The position numbers were made by a program, and so were the translations under genes. The notes beneath the pieces are model-generated. The model was given only the letters and a program-made list of their open reading frames with translations. It had not been told where the DNA came from and made no database searches. From NCBI GenBank assembly GCA_035510575.1, contig DATKGV010000012.1, positions 7,596 through 71,595 on the forward strand: a stretch of DNA of 64,000 bases, given 5' to 3'. Below, piece after piece: positions 3,454-38,109 of this stretch (its first letter is position 1; each line of letters begins with the position of its first letter). Source of the stretch: Minisyncoccota bacterium. Its GTDB lineage: Bacteria > Patescibacteriota > Minisyncoccia > Phycocordibacterales > UBA9973.

Positions 3454-3490
3454 AATTCGATTATATCATTTTATTATTATAAATTACAAA

Positions 3491-3513
3491 ATTTAGTAGT
3501 TGAACTACTAAAT
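3491..3513. repeat. REP palindrome copy 1: ATTTAGTAGTT-G-AACTACTAAAT.
   Basis: Perfect palindrome with 11-bp arms, 22 bp upstream of the RAYT start. Confidence 0.8.
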
Positions 3514-3534
3514 TTATGATATAATCAAATAATC

Positions 3535-4164
3535 ATGAGAAATCATATTTTTGAAATTGGGAAATATTATCATATTTATAATAGAGGAGTAGATAAAAGA
3601 GATATTATTTTAGACGAAGAAGATATTAAAAGGTTTTTGCAAAGTTTAATTGAATTTAATACTATTGATCCAATTCAAAGTATTTTTCAACAACACTTAA
3701 AGAAAAAGTTAAAATTTAGTAGTTCAACTACTAAAAAACAATTGGTTTCTATTGTTGCTTATTGTATAAATCTTAATCATTTCCATTTACTCATTACTCC
3801 TCTAGTAGATAAAGGAATTGAAAAATTTATGCAACGTATTGGTGGTTACACTAGGTTTTTTAATGAAAAATATGATAGATCTGGAGCTTTATTTCAAGGA
3901 AGATTCAAATCAAAAATTATAGAAGATAATAATTACCTTCTTAATTTAAGTGCTTATATAAATTTTAATAATAGAAAAGAAGATGGAGATTTTATTTCAG
4001 AATTTAGTAAATCAAGCCTTGAGGAGTATATTCAAGATGACACAAAAGGTCTTTGTTCCAAAAAAATAATTTTATCTAATTTTAAAAATAAAAAAGATTA
4101 TTTAGAATTTGCAAAATCTTCATGGAAAGAAACTTTAAAAAGAAAAGAAGAAGTAGAATTTTAG
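3535..4164 (+). CDS. REP-associated tyrosine transposase (RAYT, IS200/IS605 TnpA-like Y1 HUH transposase).
   Basis: HUH motif HFHLLI. Conserved GYTRFFNEKYDRSGALFQGRFKS block typical of Y1 transposases. YHIYNRG near the N-terminus. Flanked by REP palindromes. Confidence 0.7.
   Translation: MRNHIFEIGKYYHIYNRGVDKRDIILDEEDIKRFLQSLIEFNTIDPIQSIFQQHLKKKLKFSSSTTKKQLVSIVAYCINLNHFHLLITPLVDKGIEKFMQRIGGYTRFFNEKYDRSGALFQGRFKSKIIEDNNYLLNLSAYINFNNRKEDGDFISEFSKSSLEEYIQDDTKGLCSKKIILSNFKNKKDYLEFAKSSWKETLKRKEEVEF
3715..3735. repeat. REP palindrome copy 2: TTTAGTAGTT-C-AACTACTAAA. It lies inside the RAYT ORF and is in frame.
   Basis: Perfect palindrome. It encodes KFSSSTTKK within the RAYT. Confidence 0.8.
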
Positions 4165-4178
4165 TAGTTGGACTACTA
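4162..4178. repeat. REP palindrome copy 3: TAGTAGT-TGG-ACTACTA.
   Basis: The palindrome overlaps the RAYT stop codon TAG. Confidence 0.75.
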
Positions 4179-4939
4179 TTATTTATATAATTTAAAACAT
4201 TTATTCTTAAGTATAGCTACTTCTTTTATTATATTTAGTTTTGATGCATATTTTACATCCTCATCAAATTCCCAACTACGTAATTCTCTTCCACTAATAG
4301 AATCCCAAATTAATTTTTTAAATTTGGATTTAGATTTTTTATATGCATTTAAACACACTTCTACTTCTGGTGATTTTGTTCCTTTTAAATAACTAATTAT
4401 TAATCCCGCTCCTAAATAATCTTCAATATTGGGACGTAATTCCTTATCCCCCTCCATCTTTCTCCACAAGATATAATAGTAACAGGTATTTTATTAAATT
4501 TTCTTATTCTATTAACTATTTGCGCCACAGGACGAGCATTTATTATGGAACCAATAAAAACAAAATCATTATTTTCAGCTATTTTAGAATAAGTTGAACC
4601 ATTACGAGATGGTAATAAAAATTTTTTACCATTACATGATTTATTAAAAGACAAAGAAGATAAGGATTGTTTATTATAAAGTTTTGCTTCTGACCTTCCT
4701 AATACAACTTCTGCATTAATCTCTTTTGCATATGAATCTATATCTTCTATTTCTGTTTTTGAAAAAGGAAAAATTTCTGATCCATAGTGAATTGCTGTTG
4801 TTACAGTAGTGGAGAAACTCAAAATATCAACAATTATAATAATATCTTTTCTTTTTACTGCTTCTTTTATACCATTTAGACCCCAATCCAATTTACATTC
4901 AAATGGTTCTTGATTAAATACATTATCTGTTTCTTTCAT
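4179..4939 (-). pseudogene. 2-phosphosulfolactate phosphatase family (ComB-like), split by a frameshift at a G5/C5 homopolymer near 4440-4446.
   Basis: Two adjacent-frame ORFs, 4412..4939 and 4179..4469, together resemble ComB: VDILSFSTTV; FLLPSRNGST...ISCGERW; EDYLGAGLIISYL. The frames are joined by a +1 shift at GGGGG. Confidence 0.5.
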
Positions 4940-4951
4940 TATTTTTGAGAA

Positions 4952-4978
4952 AATTTTAGTAGTTGGACTACTAAAATT
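4952..4978. repeat. REP palindrome copy 4: AATTTTAGTAGT-TGG-ACTACTAAAATT.
   Basis: Near-perfect palindrome just upstream of the ComB-like gene start. Confidence 0.75.
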
Positions 4979-4984
4979 ATTAAT

Positions 4985-8308: not shown

Positions 8309-9790
8309 CTACGCGCGAAGTATTTGTATTGCGGCATTCAAGCGGGAAATCGTTTCATTCTTGCCTAATATTGAAGCTATAATAAACGGATCTGGAGATT
8401 TATCGAGGCCTGACAGAGCATAGCGAATCGGCCAAAGAATATCGCCGCGGCCAATTTCTTCGGCATAAGGCCATAATTTTTCTTTGATATTTTCTTTTGT
8501 AAAATCTTTAATTGGTATGTCCTGTATTATAGATATCGCATTTGCGAGATAATCTGAAAGTATTTGATATTTGTTTTCCTCGGGTATTTTTGATGACTTA
8601 AAGAATAATGAATCCCTGTCAAATGCGGGCTTGCCGAAAAAGTAAGTCAATTCGCCATTTACAGCCATATCCGCTATATCTTTTCCTTTTGAAATTCTTT
8701 CCATGATTATTGGAACAATATTATGTATTACTTCGTTCGTATAGCCCTTAAGTTTCCTTAAACTATTTGGAATAAATTTTTCCGCATATTCTTCTTGCTC
8801 TTCATAAGATAACAATTTTAAATGTTCTTTGTTTATCCAATCCAATTTTTCTTCGTTGAATTTTCCTCCGCTGTGATGAATTTTATCTATGTCAAAAAGC
8901 TTTATAAACTCATCCATATTTATTATTTCAGTTTCATTTCCGGGATTCCATCCTATAAAAGCCAGGAAATTCACCATGGCCTCCGGCAGATATCCTTCTT
9001 TTTCATATTCCAAGACATCTTTAGCCCCGTCGCGCTTGCCTAATTTCTTTTTGCCATCCGGCCCCATTATAGGGGGCAAAGTTGCAAAATGCGGCCTTTC
9101 TATTTCTAAGGCGTCATAAAGCGAAAGAAACTTCGGCGTTGAAGCGATAAACTCATCGGCGCGCATAATATGGGTTACGCCCATTTCAAAATCATCAATA
9201 ATGTGCGCGAAATTATATGTGGGATAACCGTCGCTTTTTATTAATATGAAATCATCAAGCGCTTCAGGTCCCGCTTTCAAATCTCCGCGGACCAGATCAT
9301 TCCACTCATACGGTTTAATATCTGCAACTTTAAAGCGAAGGGGCTGCGTTCCATTCCATATCGGCGGATTTTTCGGCCGGTGATTCCTGTATAAAAATGG
9401 TTTTTTAGATTCTTTCGCTTGCCTGCGAAAAGTTTCCACTTCTTCTTCGGTATAAGGATCGGCATAAGCCATGCCTTTATCTATCAGTATTTTCGCGTAT
9501 TTTAAGTATGATGAGAGCCGTTGCGACTGAATGTATGGAGCATGAGATCCTCCTATGTCAGGTCCCTCGTCCCAATCAATTCCCAGCCATTTCAAAGATT
9601 CAATTATATGGCTTATCGAACCGCCAACTTCCCTTTCTTTGTCGGTATCTTCTATTCTAAGTATAAATTTGCCATTATGCGCTTTGGCATAAGCAAAAGC
9701 GTATAGAGCAGTTCTAACGCCGCCAATGTGCATAAAACCTGTAGGTGAAGGAGCAAAGCGCGTGACAACAGTTTTAGAATTTGTAGACAT
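8309..9790 (-). CDS. gltX: Glutamyl-tRNA synthetase.
   Basis: HIGG motif, VVTRFAPSPTGFMHIGGVRTAL. KLGKRDG (KMSKS-like). Confidence 0.9.
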   Translation of the reverse strand: MSTNSKTVVTRFAPSPTGFMHIGGVRTALYAFAYAKAHNGKFILRIEDTDKEREVGGSISHIIESLKWLGIDWDEGPDIGGSHAPYIQSQRLSSYLKYAKILIDKGMAYADPYTEEEVETFRRQAKESKKPFLYRNHRPKNPPIWNGTQPLRFKVADIKPYEWNDLVRGDLKAGPEALDDFILIKSDGYPTYNFAHIIDDFEMGVTHIMRADEFIASTPKFLSLYDALEIERPHFATLPPIMGPDGKKKLGKRDGAKDVLEYEKEGYLPEAMVNFLAFIGWNPGNETEIINMDEFIKLFDIDKIHHSGGKFNEEKLDWINKEHLKLLSYEEQEEYAEKFIPNSLRKLKGYTNEVIHNIVPIIMERISKGKDIADMAVNGELTYFFGKPAFDRDSLFFKSSKIPEENKYQILSDYLANAISIIQDIPIKDFTKENIKEKLWPYAEEIGRGDILWPIRYALSGLDKSPDPFIIASILGKNETISRLNAAIQILRA

Positions 9791-9792
9791 AA

Positions 9793-10923
9793 TTATGATT
9801 CATGGCTAACTGCTATAGCAAGAGCCTGTTCAGCAATCTTTTTTGCTGCGTCGGGTGATGCGAAAGCAAGAGCTTTATTTTTCATTTGAGTAAGTTTTTC
9901 TTTATCAGCCATTAACCTGTCAATTTCTGCGACAAGAACATGCGGTGTCAGATTGCTTTCTTCTATCACAAGGCAAGCGCCAGTTCTGGCATAACTGAAC
10001 GCATTTTTCTTTTGATGATCGCCGTTTGAATTTGTAATTGGAATAATTATAGATGGTATTCCCCAAGATGCTATTTCAAAAATAAAAGATCCTGCTCTTG
10101 AAATTACCAAAGTGGCAGCGCCTGCAGCCATGCGTATGGCAAGATTATTCAAGTAAGGAATAGGCACGTATCTTATAAGATTTTTTGAATCGCTTTCCAT
10201 TACAAGTTTAGACCGCGCGAGCACGTCATCAATATTTTTGACTCCTGTTTGATGAATTATTTGATAGCGGGAAAGAAGCTCTGGTAAGACCTCAATGATA
10301 TTATTATTTATAACTTCCGCTCCTTGCGAGCCGCCAAGAACAAAAATAACAGGCAATTTGGGATCAAGCTTGAAAAATTCAAATGCGCCCTCTGGACTTC
10401 CATGCAGTATTTCTTTGCGAATCGGTTGGCCGGTTAAAGCCGTTTTATCCTTTGGAAGATGTTCTCCGGCTTCTGGCCACGATACGGCTACGCGCTTGGC
10501 GAATTTAGCAGTCCACGCATTTAGCCGTCCTGGAATTGAATCTGATTCATGAACAATGACAGGTATGCGAAGCAATCTGGCCGCAAAAACCGCCGGGAAA
10601 GCAGAATAGCCCCCTTTTGATATGACAACATCGGGGTAAATAAAAAACATAGTGATTAAGCCGAAGAACATGCCAATAGCCAAAGGGAAAATATCAAAAA
10701 AGTTCCTGATAGAAAAATAAGTGCGCATTTTGCCTGACGGTATCTGGACAAAAGTGATCTTATTCTCAAAAAGCATGCGCTTATCGTATGGAGTATCGGA
10801 CATATAATAAAGCCGCAAATCGATTATCTTCTGCTTTTCTGCAACTTCAAGTAATTCTTCGGCTATGGCAATGAGCGGCAGAAAATGTCCGCCAGTCCCG
10901 CCTCCTGTAAGTAATATCTTCAT
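9793..10923 (-). CDS. murG: MurG, the lipid II-forming GlcNAc transferase.
   Basis: N-terminus LLTGGGTGGHFLPLIAIA. GT28 family. Confidence 0.9.
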   Translation of the reverse strand: MKILLTGGGTGGHFLPLIAIAEELLEVAEKQKIIDLRLYYMSDTPYDKRMLFENKITFVQIPSGKMRTYFSIRNFFDIFPLAIGMFFGLITMFFIYPDVVISKGGYSAFPAVFAARLLRIPVIVHESDSIPGRLNAWTAKFAKRVAVSWPEAGEHLPKDKTALTGQPIRKEILHGSPEGAFEFFKLDPKLPVIFVLGGSQGAEVINNNIIEVLPELLSRYQIIHQTGVKNIDDVLARSKLVMESDSKNLIRYVPIPYLNNLAIRMAAGAATLVISRAGSFIFEIASWGIPSIIIPITNSNGDHQKKNAFSYARTGACLVIEESNLTPHVLVAEIDRLMADKEKLTQMKNKALAFASPDAAKKIAEQALAIAVSHES

Positions 10924-18800: not shown

Positions 18801-18961
18801 TTCTTTGAGTATTAAATTGTTAGTAAATTATTTATTAAGTTCTCTCAATATCCATAAAGAAACTGGGAGAACCTAATAAAATCTAACAATCAAACTCAAT
18901 TTCAAAGAACTAATTTACTGTTGGCAGTTTATCACATAATATCACATTTGTCAAGCATAGC

Positions 18962-18992
18962 AGGCCTGCGGAAGCAAGGCTTCCGCAGGCCT
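18962..18992. promoter_or_regulatory. Perfect 31-nt GC-rich palindrome AGGCCTGCGGAAGC-AAG-GCTTCCGCAGGCCT in a divergent intergenic region.
   Basis: 14-bp arms. Lies between divergently oriented genes, the 103-aa gene and dnaB. Preceded by direct repeats TATCACAT x2 at 18930-18947. Confidence 0.5.
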
Positions 18993-26067: not shown

Positions 26068-27336
26068 TTAAGACAATCTCTCTTTGAAATCCTTATAGCC
26101 GAATTTCTTTATAATTTTAATCTTACCCCCGCCTGCTCCCGAACTATCGTGAGGGCGGGCAGGTTTTTTTATTATAGCAATTGAAGGAAGATTTATGCCA
26201 TTAAAAGTATTGTTCTTAACCATCGTATAAATGGCCATGTTTAAGAAAATTATTTTTTGCCCGATAGTTGAAGGTTGTGGAAAAGAGTAATCTCCTATAA
26301 CATCTCCAGTCAAACAGCTCGGGCCGACTAAGCGATAAATGTTCACATTTCCTTCTGTAGCTGATTTAGCGCCAAGAATAGTTGGTAAATAAGGCATTTC
26401 CAAGACGTCAGGCATATGAGTAGTGGCCGAGACGTCTATTACAGCGATATTCATATTATTTTTTGTTATATCAACTACGCTGCCTATTAAAATGCCAGCA
26501 TTAAGTGCTATGGCTTCACCCGGCTCTAAATAAACTTGCAAGTGCGGATATTGGGCTTTAAAATCCATGATTATCTTATTAAGAAGCGCAATATCATAGT
26601 CCTTGCGCGTAATATGATGCCCGCCGCCGAAATTAACCCATTTCATCCGAGGCAAAAATTCGCCGAATTTTTCTTCAAATACTTTAAGCGTACGCTCTAG
26701 TGCATCAGCATTAAGCTCGCAAAGATTATGAAAATGAAGGCCGTCTATGCCATCCAAATTATTTGATTCAAAATTCGTTTTGGTCACGCCGAAATGGGAA
26801 TTAGGCCTGCTTGGGTCATACATAGGATTTTCCGTTTCGCTATGTTCCACATTTACCCTGATTCCGCAAGAAATTTTCTTTTTAGAATTTTTAATAACAT
26901 TCTTAAATTTATTCCATTGCGAAAATGAATTAAAAACCATATGATCAGCGTATCTGACATATTCTTTCATATTTTCTTTAGTATATGACGGAGAAAAGAC
27001 GTGGACTTCCCCGCCGAATTTTTTATATCCTAGACGCGCTTCATTTACTGAACTTGCTTCGCTTCCTGTAAGATATTTTTTGATCAATGGGAAAACGGAA
27101 AACATAGAAAAACTTTTCAGCGCCATTATGATTTTACAGCCGGTTTTTTCTTGAACGGAAGAAAGTATTTTAAGATTATGTTCCAATCTTTCCTCGCTCA
27201 CCACATAACAGGGCGTTTCAACATCAGAAAAATCCTGCGCATTCCAGCCCTCTTCATCTACCCAAGGTTCAATAAACATATTTTCTTTTTTATCAGGCAT
27301 TTTAATTTTAATTTTTGATGCTACAAACTCTGCCAT
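26068..27336 (-). CDS. nspC: Carboxynorspermidine/carboxyspermidine decarboxylase (PLP fold III), with a repeat-encoded C-terminal extension.
   Basis: NspC-like alignment throughout: KSFSMF...NFGGGHHI...EPGEAIA...GPSCLTGDV. C-terminal tail IKKPARPHDSSGAGGGKIKIIKK is encoded by repeat A copy 2. Confidence 0.8.
   Translation of the reverse strand: MAEFVASKIKIKMPDKKENMFIEPWVDEEGWNAQDFSDVETPCYVVSEERLEHNLKILSSVQEKTGCKIIMALKSFSMFSVFPLIKKYLTGSEASSVNEARLGYKKFGGEVHVFSPSYTKENMKEYVRYADHMVFNSFSQWNKFKNVIKNSKKKISCGIRVNVEHSETENPMYDPSRPNSHFGVTKTNFESNNLDGIDGLHFHNLCELNADALERTLKVFEEKFGEFLPRMKWVNFGGGHHITRKDYDIALLNKIIMDFKAQYPHLQVYLEPGEAIALNAGILIGSVVDITKNNMNIAVIDVSATTHMPDVLEMPYLPTILGAKSATEGNVNIYRLVGPSCLTGDVIGDYSFPQPSTIGQKIIFLNMAIYTMVKNNTFNGINLPSIAIIKKPARPHDSSGAGGGKIKIIKKFGYKDFKERLS
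26125..26170. repeat. GC-rich repeat family A, copy 2 (reverse complement of copy 1), at the 3' end of nspC.
   Basis: CCCCCGCCTGCTCCCGAACTATCGTGAGGGCGGGCAGGTTTTTTT. One mismatch relative to copy 1. Confidence 0.8.
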
Positions 27337-27351
27337 GGCAGAGTTTGTAGC
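27320..27351. promoter_or_regulatory. Perfect 32-bp palindrome GCTACAAACTCTGCCATGGCAGAGTTTGTAGC centred on the nspC start codon.
   Basis: The minus-strand ATG at 27334-27336 sits in the central CCATGG. The arms would form a 14-bp stem sequestering the AUG, or a dyad-symmetric operator. Confidence 0.7.
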
Positions 27352-27362
27352 ACTTCGTTATT

Positions 27363-37563: not shown

Positions 37564-38109
37564 ATGTCAAAATTCACTACAGGGTCAAGTAAAAGCGACT
37601 ATTCCAAGAAAATATTGAAGATTTTGGCTGAAAAACCGGCAGTTTCTGTTATGGAACTTGTAGATAGGGCTTTAGGCGCTCAGATAGCGCCTAAAGCCCT
37701 ATCTACGTATGCCCTTACACGCTCGCTAAAAGGCCTTACAGAGGCAGGATTTGTTGAGAGCGTATCATCGGGTCAAAACGAATACGCGCGTCTTACAAAC
37801 GAAGGCAAGCGCAAGGCCTATAGCATAAAACTGGAATCCGGACTTGTTTCAACGAAATGGGACGGCTATTGGCGAATGATTATGCTTGATCTGCCAGAAG
37901 AACGCAAAAGCGAACGCGAGGCGCTTCGCTATCTGCTCAAAAAGGCCGGATTTGTCTGTGTTAAAAATTCTGTCTGGGTGTCTATGTACCCATATGAGAA
38001 TCTTTTCATAAATATTAAAAAAGATCTCGGTCTTACAACCGAGATGATGATACTCGTCACAGATAAAATTGACGAAGAAACAGAGAAAGAATTAATTAAG
38101 ATGTTTTAA
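37564..38109 (+). CDS. Small winged-helix regulator with a PaaX_C-like C-terminal domain.
   Basis: N-terminal wHTH ILKILAEKPAVSVMELV. C-terminal WDGYWRMIMLDLPEERKSEREALRYLLKKAGF...NSVWVS resembles the PaaX C-terminal domain. Located between grpE and dnaK. Confidence 0.45.
   Translation: MSKFTTGSSKSDYSKKILKILAEKPAVSVMELVDRALGAQIAPKALSTYALTRSLKGLTEAGFVESVSSGQNEYARLTNEGKRKAYSIKLESGLVSTKWDGYWRMIMLDLPEERKSEREALRYLLKKAGFVCVKNSVWVSMYPYENLFINIKKDLGLTTEMMILVTDKIDEETEKELIKMF

Follow-up and report, generated by a model that had tools for sequence, protein, structure and literature searches.

What is a transposase gene doing among four copies of a single palindrome, one of which lies inside the gene itself? 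The question is raised by a locus in a 64,000-nucleotide stretch of DNA from a Minisyncoccota bacterium (GenBank assembly GCA_035510575.1, contig DATKGV010000012.1, positions 7,596 to 71,595 of the forward strand); this whole stretch is called the window below. A preliminary description of the window proposed that the locus resembles a REPtron, that is, a transposase gene of the RAYT type accompanied by repetitive extragenic palindromic (REP) sequences. Here, the locus was compared with 80 homologous loci from species-representative genomes, which were searched for palindromes; counts out of 81 include the window, and mis-binned contigs may be present among the loci derived from metagenome-assembled genomes (MAGs). 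The answer that we favour, with a probability of about 0.68, is a REP/RAYT-like system of Patescibacteria fitted to compact genomes, in which a single-copy Y1 HUH transposase acting on single-stranded DNA (ssDNA) is combined with private, low-copy hairpins that are perfect palindromes of 23-27 nt.

Four hairpin copies around and inside a Y1 HUH transposase gene

The pattern TAGTAGT-NNN-ACTACTA was searched in the whole window and has exactly four matches, at 3494, 3717, 4162 and 4957, in agreement with the number first reported, and none in the rest of the 64 kb. About 0.06 matches are expected by chance in the window, and four were reached in 0 of 100 shuffles. All four copies lie within 1.5 kb, around and inside the only Y1 gene of the window, and they bracket a frameshifted ComB-like gene. 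With their A/T extensions, copies 1 to 4 are perfect palindromes of 27, 21, 17 and 27 nt (the positions of copies 1, 2 and 4 in Table 1 are those of the extended palindromes). Of the positions given in the preliminary description, 4162 is the start of the pattern itself, and 3491, 3715 and 4952 correspond approximately to the starts of the longer, A/T-extended palindromes. The stricter palindrome proposed there, TAGTAGTT-N-AACTACTA, with arms of 8 nt, holds for copies 1 and 2 and fails for copies 3 and 4, which read TAGTAGT-TGG-ACTACTA and therefore have arms of 7 nt. Folded as ssDNA, the copies are 3.7-6.8 standard deviations better than shuffled sequences; copy 1 folds at -8.7 kcal/mol (z = -5.65).

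Copy 1 occupies part of the 81-bp intergenic region that separates the divergent genes for glyceraldehyde-3-phosphate dehydrogenase (GAPDH) and the transposase. Copy 2 lies in frame in the transposase open reading frame (ORF), as first described, where its codons TTT AGT AGT TCA ACT ACT AAA encode F61-S-S-S-T-T-K67, a loop that precedes the HUH strand. The reversed loop (G orientation) would put a TGA in frame at this place, so that the in-frame copy has to be of the C orientation. The overlap of copy 3 with the end of the gene was also correctly seen: the pattern opens with the stop codon TAG (4162-4164), which belongs to the 5' arm of the hairpin, and the 3' end of this hairpin is directly adjoined by the stop codon of ComB (4179-4181, minus strand). 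Copy 4 is 6 nt from the stop codon of GatB.

The 209-amino-acid product scores 36.2 bits against the Pfam model PF01797 (Y1_Tnp), above the gathering threshold of 23 (E = 7.3e-9). Its HUH motif is H82-F83-H84 (nt 3778-3786), and a candidate catalytic tyrosine, Y141 (nt 3955-3957), is located in helix 132-144 of the AlphaFold model (pLDDT 88.7). H82, H84 and Y141 show no variation in sets of 29 and 118 homologs, so that a loss of catalytic residues, considered at the outset, does not apply; Y141 is probably the catalytic nucleophile. The only part of the model with a pLDDT below 50 is residues 61-65, which are encoded by hairpin copy 2. In a Foldseek comparison with PDB, the first match was 4ER8, the Escherichia coli RAYT TnpA_REP with its REP hairpin (E = 1.6e-5, target-normalised TM-score 0.62), followed among the first 24 PDB matches by IS608 TnpA, ISDra2 TnpA and other IS200-family transposases. 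With a TnpA/RAYT fold, an HUH motif, a tyrosine on a C-terminal helix and a Pfam score above threshold, the window gene is a member of the Y1 HUH transposase superfamily. The family is large: a word-indexed search returned about 3,000 homologs of about 208 amino acids from Paceibacterota, Nomurabacteria, Parcubacteria and other Patescibacteria, some of which carry the JGI label RayT, and an exhaustive profile search found 728 clusters (50% identity) at E <= 1e-30.

The hairpin positions are conserved in the family

At least two matching hairpins were found at conserved sites in 71 of the 81 loci, the same palindrome occupying up to four fixed places: upstream of the gene, at two in-frame sites and at the stop codon (Table 1). 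Copy 1 of the window has the position of the upstream hairpin, and copy 2 that of site 1, where 46 of the 81 loci carry their own hairpin. The usual hairpin is a perfect palindrome of 23 nt, ACTT(G/A)G-N4-centre-N4-C(C/T)AAGT. Its outer stem is constant across the family; its inner stem and centre vary between loci (25 inner-arm types) and agree within a locus. Compared with ACTTAGTAGTTCAACTACTAAGT in locus L022, the TAGTAGT form of the window is recognisable as a derivative of this hairpin. When a MAG contains two paralogs (e.g. L018/L019 and L028/L041), each only about 50-60% identical to the window protein, the two have different hairpins.

At the 3' end, the stop codon either overlaps the hairpin (TAA-CTTGG...) or is the TGA or TAG of the hairpin centre. 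Because they are made of codon pairs that are reverse complements, Ser(AGT)/Thr(ACT), Ser(AGC)/Ala(GCT), Gly(GGA)/Ser(TCC) and Arg(AGG)/Pro(CCT), the in-frame palindromes can be seen in the protein sequence. In the clade of the window, site 2 looks like a probable decayed copy: residues 149-157 have the length and position of the LGSPTSKL or LGTPTTKL of relatives, and a change from LGxPTxKL to DGDFISEF would have abolished pairing and kept length. Judged by the whole set of loci, the intragenic and promoter hairpins are conserved features of the family and not a local accident.

Hairpin arms covary and evolve in concert

Covariation was measured on 68 hairpins, one per locus, over a 10-bp stem. 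In this set, 96.3% of the stem cells are paired, compared with 25-45% in slid controls, and both sides have changed in 9 of the 10 stem pairs. Double changes occupy 113 cells versus 26.5 in shuffles, and this number was reached by 0 of 500 shuffles. One-sided states of the G-T type are limited to six cells; this near absence of intermediates is more readily explained by pairing of DNA or by the symmetry of a duplex than by an RNA stem, and an RNA structure reading of the hairpins was ruled out on the same ground. Copies that have diverged within a locus remain palindromic through compensated pairs (site 2 of L052, L031 and L059; site 1 of L077). In an independent set of 118 proteins, the site-1 and site-2 peptides have a 5-mer or longer word in common in 33 cases, compared with 7.3 for shuffled partners (maximum 13).

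These results bear on the possibility that the hairpins are generic structures unrelated to the Y1 gene, such as bidirectional terminators or RNA stability stems, which would be kept by template-switch correction and clustered by chance. A and T runs do flank the window-type stem, and some of the copies that are remote from any Y1 gene lie between convergent genes. However, the scarcity of G-U-type pairs, the four conserved positions with a locus-specific sequence, and the occurrence of paralog-specific types in one genome are not what such structures predict. A scan for intrinsic terminators gave none between 3300 and 5100, and most family hairpins have no T tract. We consider this explanation very improbable.

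Dispersed copies and in-frame insertions in housekeeping genes

For copies distant from the gene, only long perfect palindromes were counted; a looser search with 7-mer arms was too noisy, with about 0.25 chance matches per locus by our own estimate, and was dropped. Copy numbers were estimated on loci of 20 kb, on the window (64 kb) and on a single 362-kb contig. When metagenome contigs were scanned for TTTAGTAGT-NNN-ACTACTAAA, 91 stretches were obtained, and 57 of 96 matches had one of the family centres (TGA, TCA, CCG, CGG, TGG or CCA), compared with about 9% expected. The same hairpin is therefore present beyond the locus, in related genomes, as the REPtron proposal anticipated. Five more sites, all orphans, were found on the 362-kb contig that carries locus L003, and in the 80 loci few copies are located more than 3 kb from the gene. 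No conserved asymmetric flank was detected in 42 oriented orphan copies. In viral contigs, 44 matches to a 16-base pattern had scattered loop triplets and no Y1 gene, and were taken as chance.

Twenty-six family-type copies lie inside long ORFs, where they read (N)FSSSTTK(I/K) or, in the other open frame, LVV[EQR]LLK. The host genes encode Obg, a Mur ligase, an IleRS-like synthetase, TsaD, a class-V aminotransferase, an LTD-domain protein and a 214-amino-acid protein of unknown function. Hairpin-free orthologs (L025, L015, L066 and L053) have a gap of 6-9 amino acids exactly at the insertion, and the IleRS ortholog of L011 has the hairpin type of L011 itself (LGGSTSK) at the same site. The window-type unit is a 27-nt palindrome, AATTTTAGTAGTT-S-AACTACTAAAATT, of nine codons, so that its insertion always leaves the reading frame intact. 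In L103 (2932-6549, minus strand), the hairpin-bearing IleRS-like class I aminoacyl-tRNA synthetase also has a histidine-phosphatase (His_Phos_1) domain inserted at residues 510-677.

The upstream hairpin as a putative promoter part

Of 65 loci, 56 have a -10-like hexamer in the stretch from the upstream hairpin to the ATG, and in 32 loci it starts exactly 2 nt past the 23-nt core. The TG of an extended -10 is found in 42 loci, supplied by the ...CCAAGTG at the 3' foot of the hairpin, and the hexamer located 17 nt 5' of the -10, in the 5' arm of the hairpin, is TTGGAA, TTGGAG or TTGGTA, as in a -35 box. This geometry suggests that the upstream hairpin is part of the promoter and contributes both the -35 box and the TG of the extended -10. 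The ATG follows the -10 by 6-7 nt in 36 loci, which points to a leaderless mRNA; in the window, the arrangement suggests a short-leader or leaderless mRNA. A generic promoter scan of the window also gave a call; in this AT-rich stretch the scan showed no excess over shuffles (15 vs 11.3) and was uninformative, so the promoter argument relies on the family-wide geometry.

A palindrome that overlaps the -35 box and the TG of the -10 at a fixed spacing is also what would be expected of an operator. The Y1 protein might be a domesticated DNA-binding regulator, the palindromes being the duplex operators of a dimer, with the upstream copy used for autoregulation and the others defining a small regulon; half-site symmetry would then explain the covariation. 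The perfect, odd-length palindromes and the scarcity of G-T intermediates agree with this proposal, as duplex DNA predicts, and so does the location of extra copies just 5' of the starts or at the stops of neighbour genes. A pure binder has no need of the invariant HUH and tyrosine residues, however, and the fold matches enzymes that bind hairpin ssDNA. Moreover, the in-frame copies in unrelated housekeeping ORFs, with clean gaps in the orthologs, look like insertions, and divergent variants within a locus keep perfect complementarity. On balance, a regulator appears improbable to us.

The Y1 gene is inherited in a syntenic context

The order GAPDH(-)-Y1 gene(+)-GatB(-) is common to the window and eight other loci (L001, L003, L004, L005, L015, L020, L022 and L025), in which the identities of Y1, GAPDH and GatB drop roughly together, GAPDH being 66-84% identical. 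In several other clades (L006-L017, L026-L036) the gene is placed between split transketolase halves or between ftsA and ftsZ, inside what are normally tight housekeeping operons, and further contexts occur as well. No conserved partner gene was found in the family loci, the neighbours being varied housekeeping genes, and there is no identical duplicate of the gene among 189 genome matches or in the 80 loci.

The AT-rich setting first attributed to the genome applies to the block 3454-4984 (23-28% GC) and not to the window as a whole, as the flanks have 38-45% GC. This difference could have denoted a recently acquired horizontal island, a possibility that was rejected: the GC content of the gene is lower than that of its flanks in 81 of 81 loci, by about 9 points on average, and the GAPDH-GatB position is kept in eight more loci, so that the low GC content is a family trait and not the mark of recent arrival. 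From these comparisons, the Y1 gene is single-copy, syntenic and vertically inherited, with a housekeeping-like distribution, and is not a recent insertion. Shared synteny together with several contexts across clades indicates that moves of the gene were rare and were followed by persistence, a behaviour described for RAYTs (PMC5581495).

The same data allow the locus to be evaluated as an autonomous IS200-like insertion sequence, in which the upstream and stop hairpins would be the ends of a unit of about 720 bp that moves whole, the internal copies being incidental. The Y1_Tnp domain, the hairpins at both ends of a one-gene unit, the several unrelated housekeeping contexts and the low GC content of the gene could all be understood in this way, and the single insertion of ComB described below indicates that DNA can be added at a hairpin. 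Nevertheless, the position is kept across hosts with strongly diverged GAPDH, no identical multi-copy elements were found (paralogs of the same MAG are distant and have different hairpins), most dispersed hairpins have no Y1 gene nearby, and a low GC content is shared by the whole family. IS200/IS605 enzymes use strand-specific imperfect hairpins. In the present family the loop orientation of the end hairpins is not fixed, the upstream and downstream orientations agreeing in many loci and not in all. An insertion sequence of this kind is therefore unlikely.

The ComB-like gene between copies 3 and 4

Copies 3 and 4 do flank a frameshifted ComB-like gene, as had been proposed. Two overlapping minus-strand ORFs, 4412..4939 (N part) and 4179..4469 (C part), make up one ComB domain, their products matching the Pfam profile 2-ph_phosp at positions 8-142 and 144-225, respectively. 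The split into 175 + 92 amino acids was called in five of the six contig loci listed, from different samples, and seven contigs have the 175-amino-acid product; as it recurs in several samples, the frameshift is real and has reached fixation in the population, rather than being produced by assembly. L216 has an intact ComB, 76% identical, in the same arrangement. Other ComB homologs are at most 52% identical (Bacillaceae, about 46-48%).

ComB is absent from L001, L003, L004 and L005, where one hairpin fills the space between the convergent stop codons of Y1 and GatB; copy 4 of the window corresponds by position to this single downstream hairpin in L001. Copies 3 and 4 have the derived TGG centre in common, whereas the hairpins of L216 have TGA and TCA. 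It follows that a sub-clade gained ComB together with one hairpin copy at the downstream hairpin, and that the gene decayed afterwards. Arrival by hairpin-directed integration would account for the arrangement. ComB was also considered as a mobile cassette found in other contexts; its only close homolog (76%) occupies the same context, and hence provides no independent evidence of movement.

Near the Y1 gene of other loci, extra cognate copies bracket single genes for an SDR, a sigma-70 region-4 protein, DUF6899, DUF3147, an ABC transporter, a pilin-like protein, a methyltransferase and a TPR protein. A bolder reading treats the hairpin as a mobile module that carries a promoter and is neutral to the reading frame, and as the recombination site of the Y1 enzyme. 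The in-ORF copies would then be no junk but would be kept for self-recognition or autoregulation, and hairpin-bounded neighbours (ComB here; the SDR, methyltransferase, ABC transporter and pilin-like genes elsewhere) would be cassettes captured in an integron-like manner through HUH chemistry. Each gene would encode an enzyme together with its DNA target, which could be read from the protein (LGSPTSK, FSSSTTK, etc.). We regard this as a speculative possibility, and a rather unlikely one.

Table 1. Features of the locus (window coordinates) and hairpin sites of the family (positions relative to the gene)
Feature	Position	Strand	Description
Hairpin copy 1	3489..3515	.	AAATTTAGTAGTT-G-AACTACTAAATTT; 20-46 nt 5' of Y1 ATG
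Extended -10 element of Y1 gene (putative)	3517..3525	+	TGATATAAT; directly 3' of copy 1; ATG 9 nt on
Y1 HUH (IS200/RAYT-like) transposase gene	3535..4164	+	209 amino acids; Pfam Y1_Tnp
Hairpin copy 2	3715..3735	.	TTTAGTAGTT-C-AACTACTAAA; in frame in Y1 ORF
Probable decayed second in-frame hairpin site	3979..4005	+	residues 149-157, EDGDFISEF, just past catalytic-Tyr helix
Hairpin copy 3	4159..4178	.	TTTTAGTAGT-TGG-ACTACTA
ComB-like 2-phosphosulfolactate phosphatase pseudogene	4179..4939	-	frameshift at or near C5 run 4448-4452 (G5 on coding strand)
Hairpin copy 4	4952..4978	.	AATTTTAGTAGT-TGG-ACTACTAAAATT; 13-39 nt 5' of ComB ATG (minus strand)
Family upstream site	~40 nt 5' of ATG		66/81 loci
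Family site 1	~+175		in frame, before HUH strand; 46/81 loci
Family site 2	~+440		in frame, just after catalytic-Tyr helix; 32/81 loci with intact cognate hairpin
Family stop site	on or adjoining stop codon		58/81 loci

Other palindromes and sequences near the gene

Other palindromes of the window had been thought possibly related to the hairpins of the locus; no tested link was found. At 18961-18992, the intergenic region of two divergent genes contains a perfect palindrome of 31 nt, AGGCCTGC-GGAAGCAAGGCTTCC-GCAGGCCT. Its inner part is the hairpin type of L025 and L070 and its outer stem differs; the GCGGAAGC...GCTTCCGC palindrome of this place is also present in L008, where it forms a doublet (+2907 and +2932). 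The 31-nt palindrome is perhaps a relic, or a member of a second palindrome family. Two more long perfect palindromes, at 37660-37706 (47 nt, GTAGATAGGGCTTTAGGCGCTCAGATAGCGCCTAAAGCCCTATCTAC) and 27319-27352 (34 nt, TGCTACAAACTCTGCCATGGCAGAGTTTGTAGCA), are unrelated in sequence to the TAGTAGT family.

In some family loci, two to four cognate hairpins form clusters by the gene, with a spacing of about 35 nt or as overlapping doublets, an arrangement similar to that of BIMEs or REPINs; elsewhere the hairpins are singlets. Such clusters occur in L058 (-961 to -873), L042 (-3104 to -2900 and -703 to -569), L071 (-246 to -34 and +790 to +851) and L011 (-997 to -956). In L039, an extra hairpin 1.2 kb 5' of the Y1 gene (about 8821-8855; gene region 9959-9995) repeats the 23-nt palindrome and the next 12 nt (AAGCTAAAAATG), and the repeated unit thus takes in the promoter-proximal segment and an ATG of the Y1 5' region. 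Perfect DnaA-box 9-mers (TTATCCACA) occur close to the Y1 gene, within 300 bp, at about 2.8 times the density found elsewhere in the loci (10 in 97.5 kb vs 43 in 1,193 kb, small numbers); they are found near the gene in L058, L071, L065, L078, L080, L034 and L001, and in L058 AGTTATCCACAGT is present on both sides of the gene, adjoining hairpins.

A model for the hairpins and their transposase

The hairpin anatomy, the conserved positions, the covariation, the identity of copies within a locus, the synteny, the dispersal with empty orthologous sites and the ComB insertion are observations that any explanation has to accommodate. In the REP/RAYT-like system that we favour, and in view of the fold and of what is established for TnpA_REP and IS608 TnpA, the Y1 protein probably binds and cleaves the hairpins and drives their homogenisation, and the promoter would be autoregulated. 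First, the enzyme would recognise the hairpin as extruded or ssDNA, like E. coli TnpA_REP and IS608 TnpA. Second, cutting and rejoining at hairpins would copy or overwrite them, mostly near the enzyme's own gene (in cis) and sometimes elsewhere. Non-coding DNA is nearly absent from these genomes, and the length of the unit is divisible by three (27 nt in the window type). The surviving copies would therefore be those placed precisely at the limits of genes or, in frame, within disordered surface loops, of which two belong to the transposase itself and others to housekeeping proteins. The upstream copy would double as a promoter, where extrusion of the hairpin or binding of the enzyme feeds back on transcription. 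In the lineage of the window, ComB and one hairpin copy would have been added by the same route at the downstream hairpin, before decay.

Several points weigh against this model. The link between the Y1 protein and the hairpins is drawn from comparisons of fold and sequence. A PDB sequence search with the family profile gave no match at E <= 1, so that a fold comparison was needed, and the NCBIfam RAYT model NF047646 gave 27.3 bits, below its curated equivalog cut-off of 80. Symmetric change of half-sites would also be expected for a dimeric protein that binds duplex DNA, and the arms could stay complementary without any enzyme, by template-switch correction of quasi-palindromes. The loop orientation of these perfect palindromes differs between sites and loci where coding permits, unlike that of the strand-specific, imperfect hairpins used by IS200/IS605 enzymes. 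On the 362-kb contig, most orphans have C-G as the innermost pair and the gene's own copies have T-A. Finally, the estimated copy number appears far below that of classical REP families, with no orphan in the other 62 kb of the window.

If the pairing of enzyme and hairpin is real, the family offers many natural cognate pairs (728 clusters) in which the DNA target is written inside the gene of the enzyme. A hairpin-recognition code of HUH enzymes could then be mined from metagenomic ORFs, which could widen the range of orthogonal HUH tags and ssDNA tools, and REP/RAYT biology would extend to the candidate phyla radiation. The family would be a clear example of repeats that evolve in concert with their transposase in a syntenic frame. 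It would also illustrate the ways in which selfish palindromes persist where non-coding DNA is almost absent, namely by serving as promoters, by forming spacers at stop codons or by encoding in-frame loops of essential proteins.

Comparison with known systems

The E. coli REPtron, in which tnpA_REP (a RAYT gene, yafM) is reportedly flanked by REP/BIME sequences, is the best structural match. The two systems have in common a single-copy Y1 HUH gene flanked by cognate hairpins (copies 1 and 3 in the window) and vertical inheritance. In contrast, the window protein is about 45 amino acids longer and falls below the curated RAYT model, the hairpins appear to be present in a handful of copies instead of hundreds, and they are perfect palindromes of 23-27 nt without the conserved 5' GTAG: in place of a GTAG-guided imperfect REP, the family consensus is ACTTGG-N4-loop-N4-CCAAGT. 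The RAYT identity put forward in the preliminary description thus stands for the Y1 HUH enzyme, its closest fold and the cognate palindromes around and in the ORF, and does not stand for the RAYT model score or the form of the repeat; the repeat appears to be of low abundance in the loci, window and contig covered. The literature searched contains no description of cognate copies in frame in the ORF of a REPtron or other RAYT-like transposase, of a promoter built from such a hairpin, or of a system of this kind in Patescibacteria.

REPIN-RAYT systems of Pseudomonas and enterobacteria (Bertels & Rainey 2011; Bertels et al. 2017, PMC5581495; PMC3337134) are similar in that each transposase lineage has its own palindrome type, several pairs may coexist in a genome, transposase and repeats appear to co-evolve, and inheritance is single-copy and housekeeping-like. 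REPINs are extragenic, abundant, inverted doublets, whereas the repeats described here are mostly singlets, apparently very few, and often intragenic. IS200/IS608 TnpA has the same catalytic fold and HUH/Tyr chemistry, in a single small gene bounded by hairpins. Those elements are mobile and multi-copy, with imperfect strand-specific hairpins and guide tetranucleotides; the present gene is syntenic, with perfect palindromes of variable orientation and copies in the ORF. The near-identical multiple copies and variable presence that define IS200/IS605 elements are not seen, the gene being syntenic and devoid of identical duplicates.

Rickettsia palindromic elements (RPEs) are mentioned in PMC1779305 as lying in frame in protein-coding genes. 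As with RPEs, the in-frame palindromic insert adds a short peptide to housekeeping proteins and corresponds to a clean gap in orthologs. RPEs reportedly measure about 100-150 bp and are found in frame in coding genes of a compact genome, and they are not known to have a dedicated transposase. Compared by length only, the unit of 23-27 nt is much shorter, and it is tied to the Y1 gene that carries it. In conclusion, the locus passes neither the canonical RAYT nor the IS200-type tests; the system would work like a REPtron or a REPIN-RAYT pair, and its in-ORF copies behave like RPEs.

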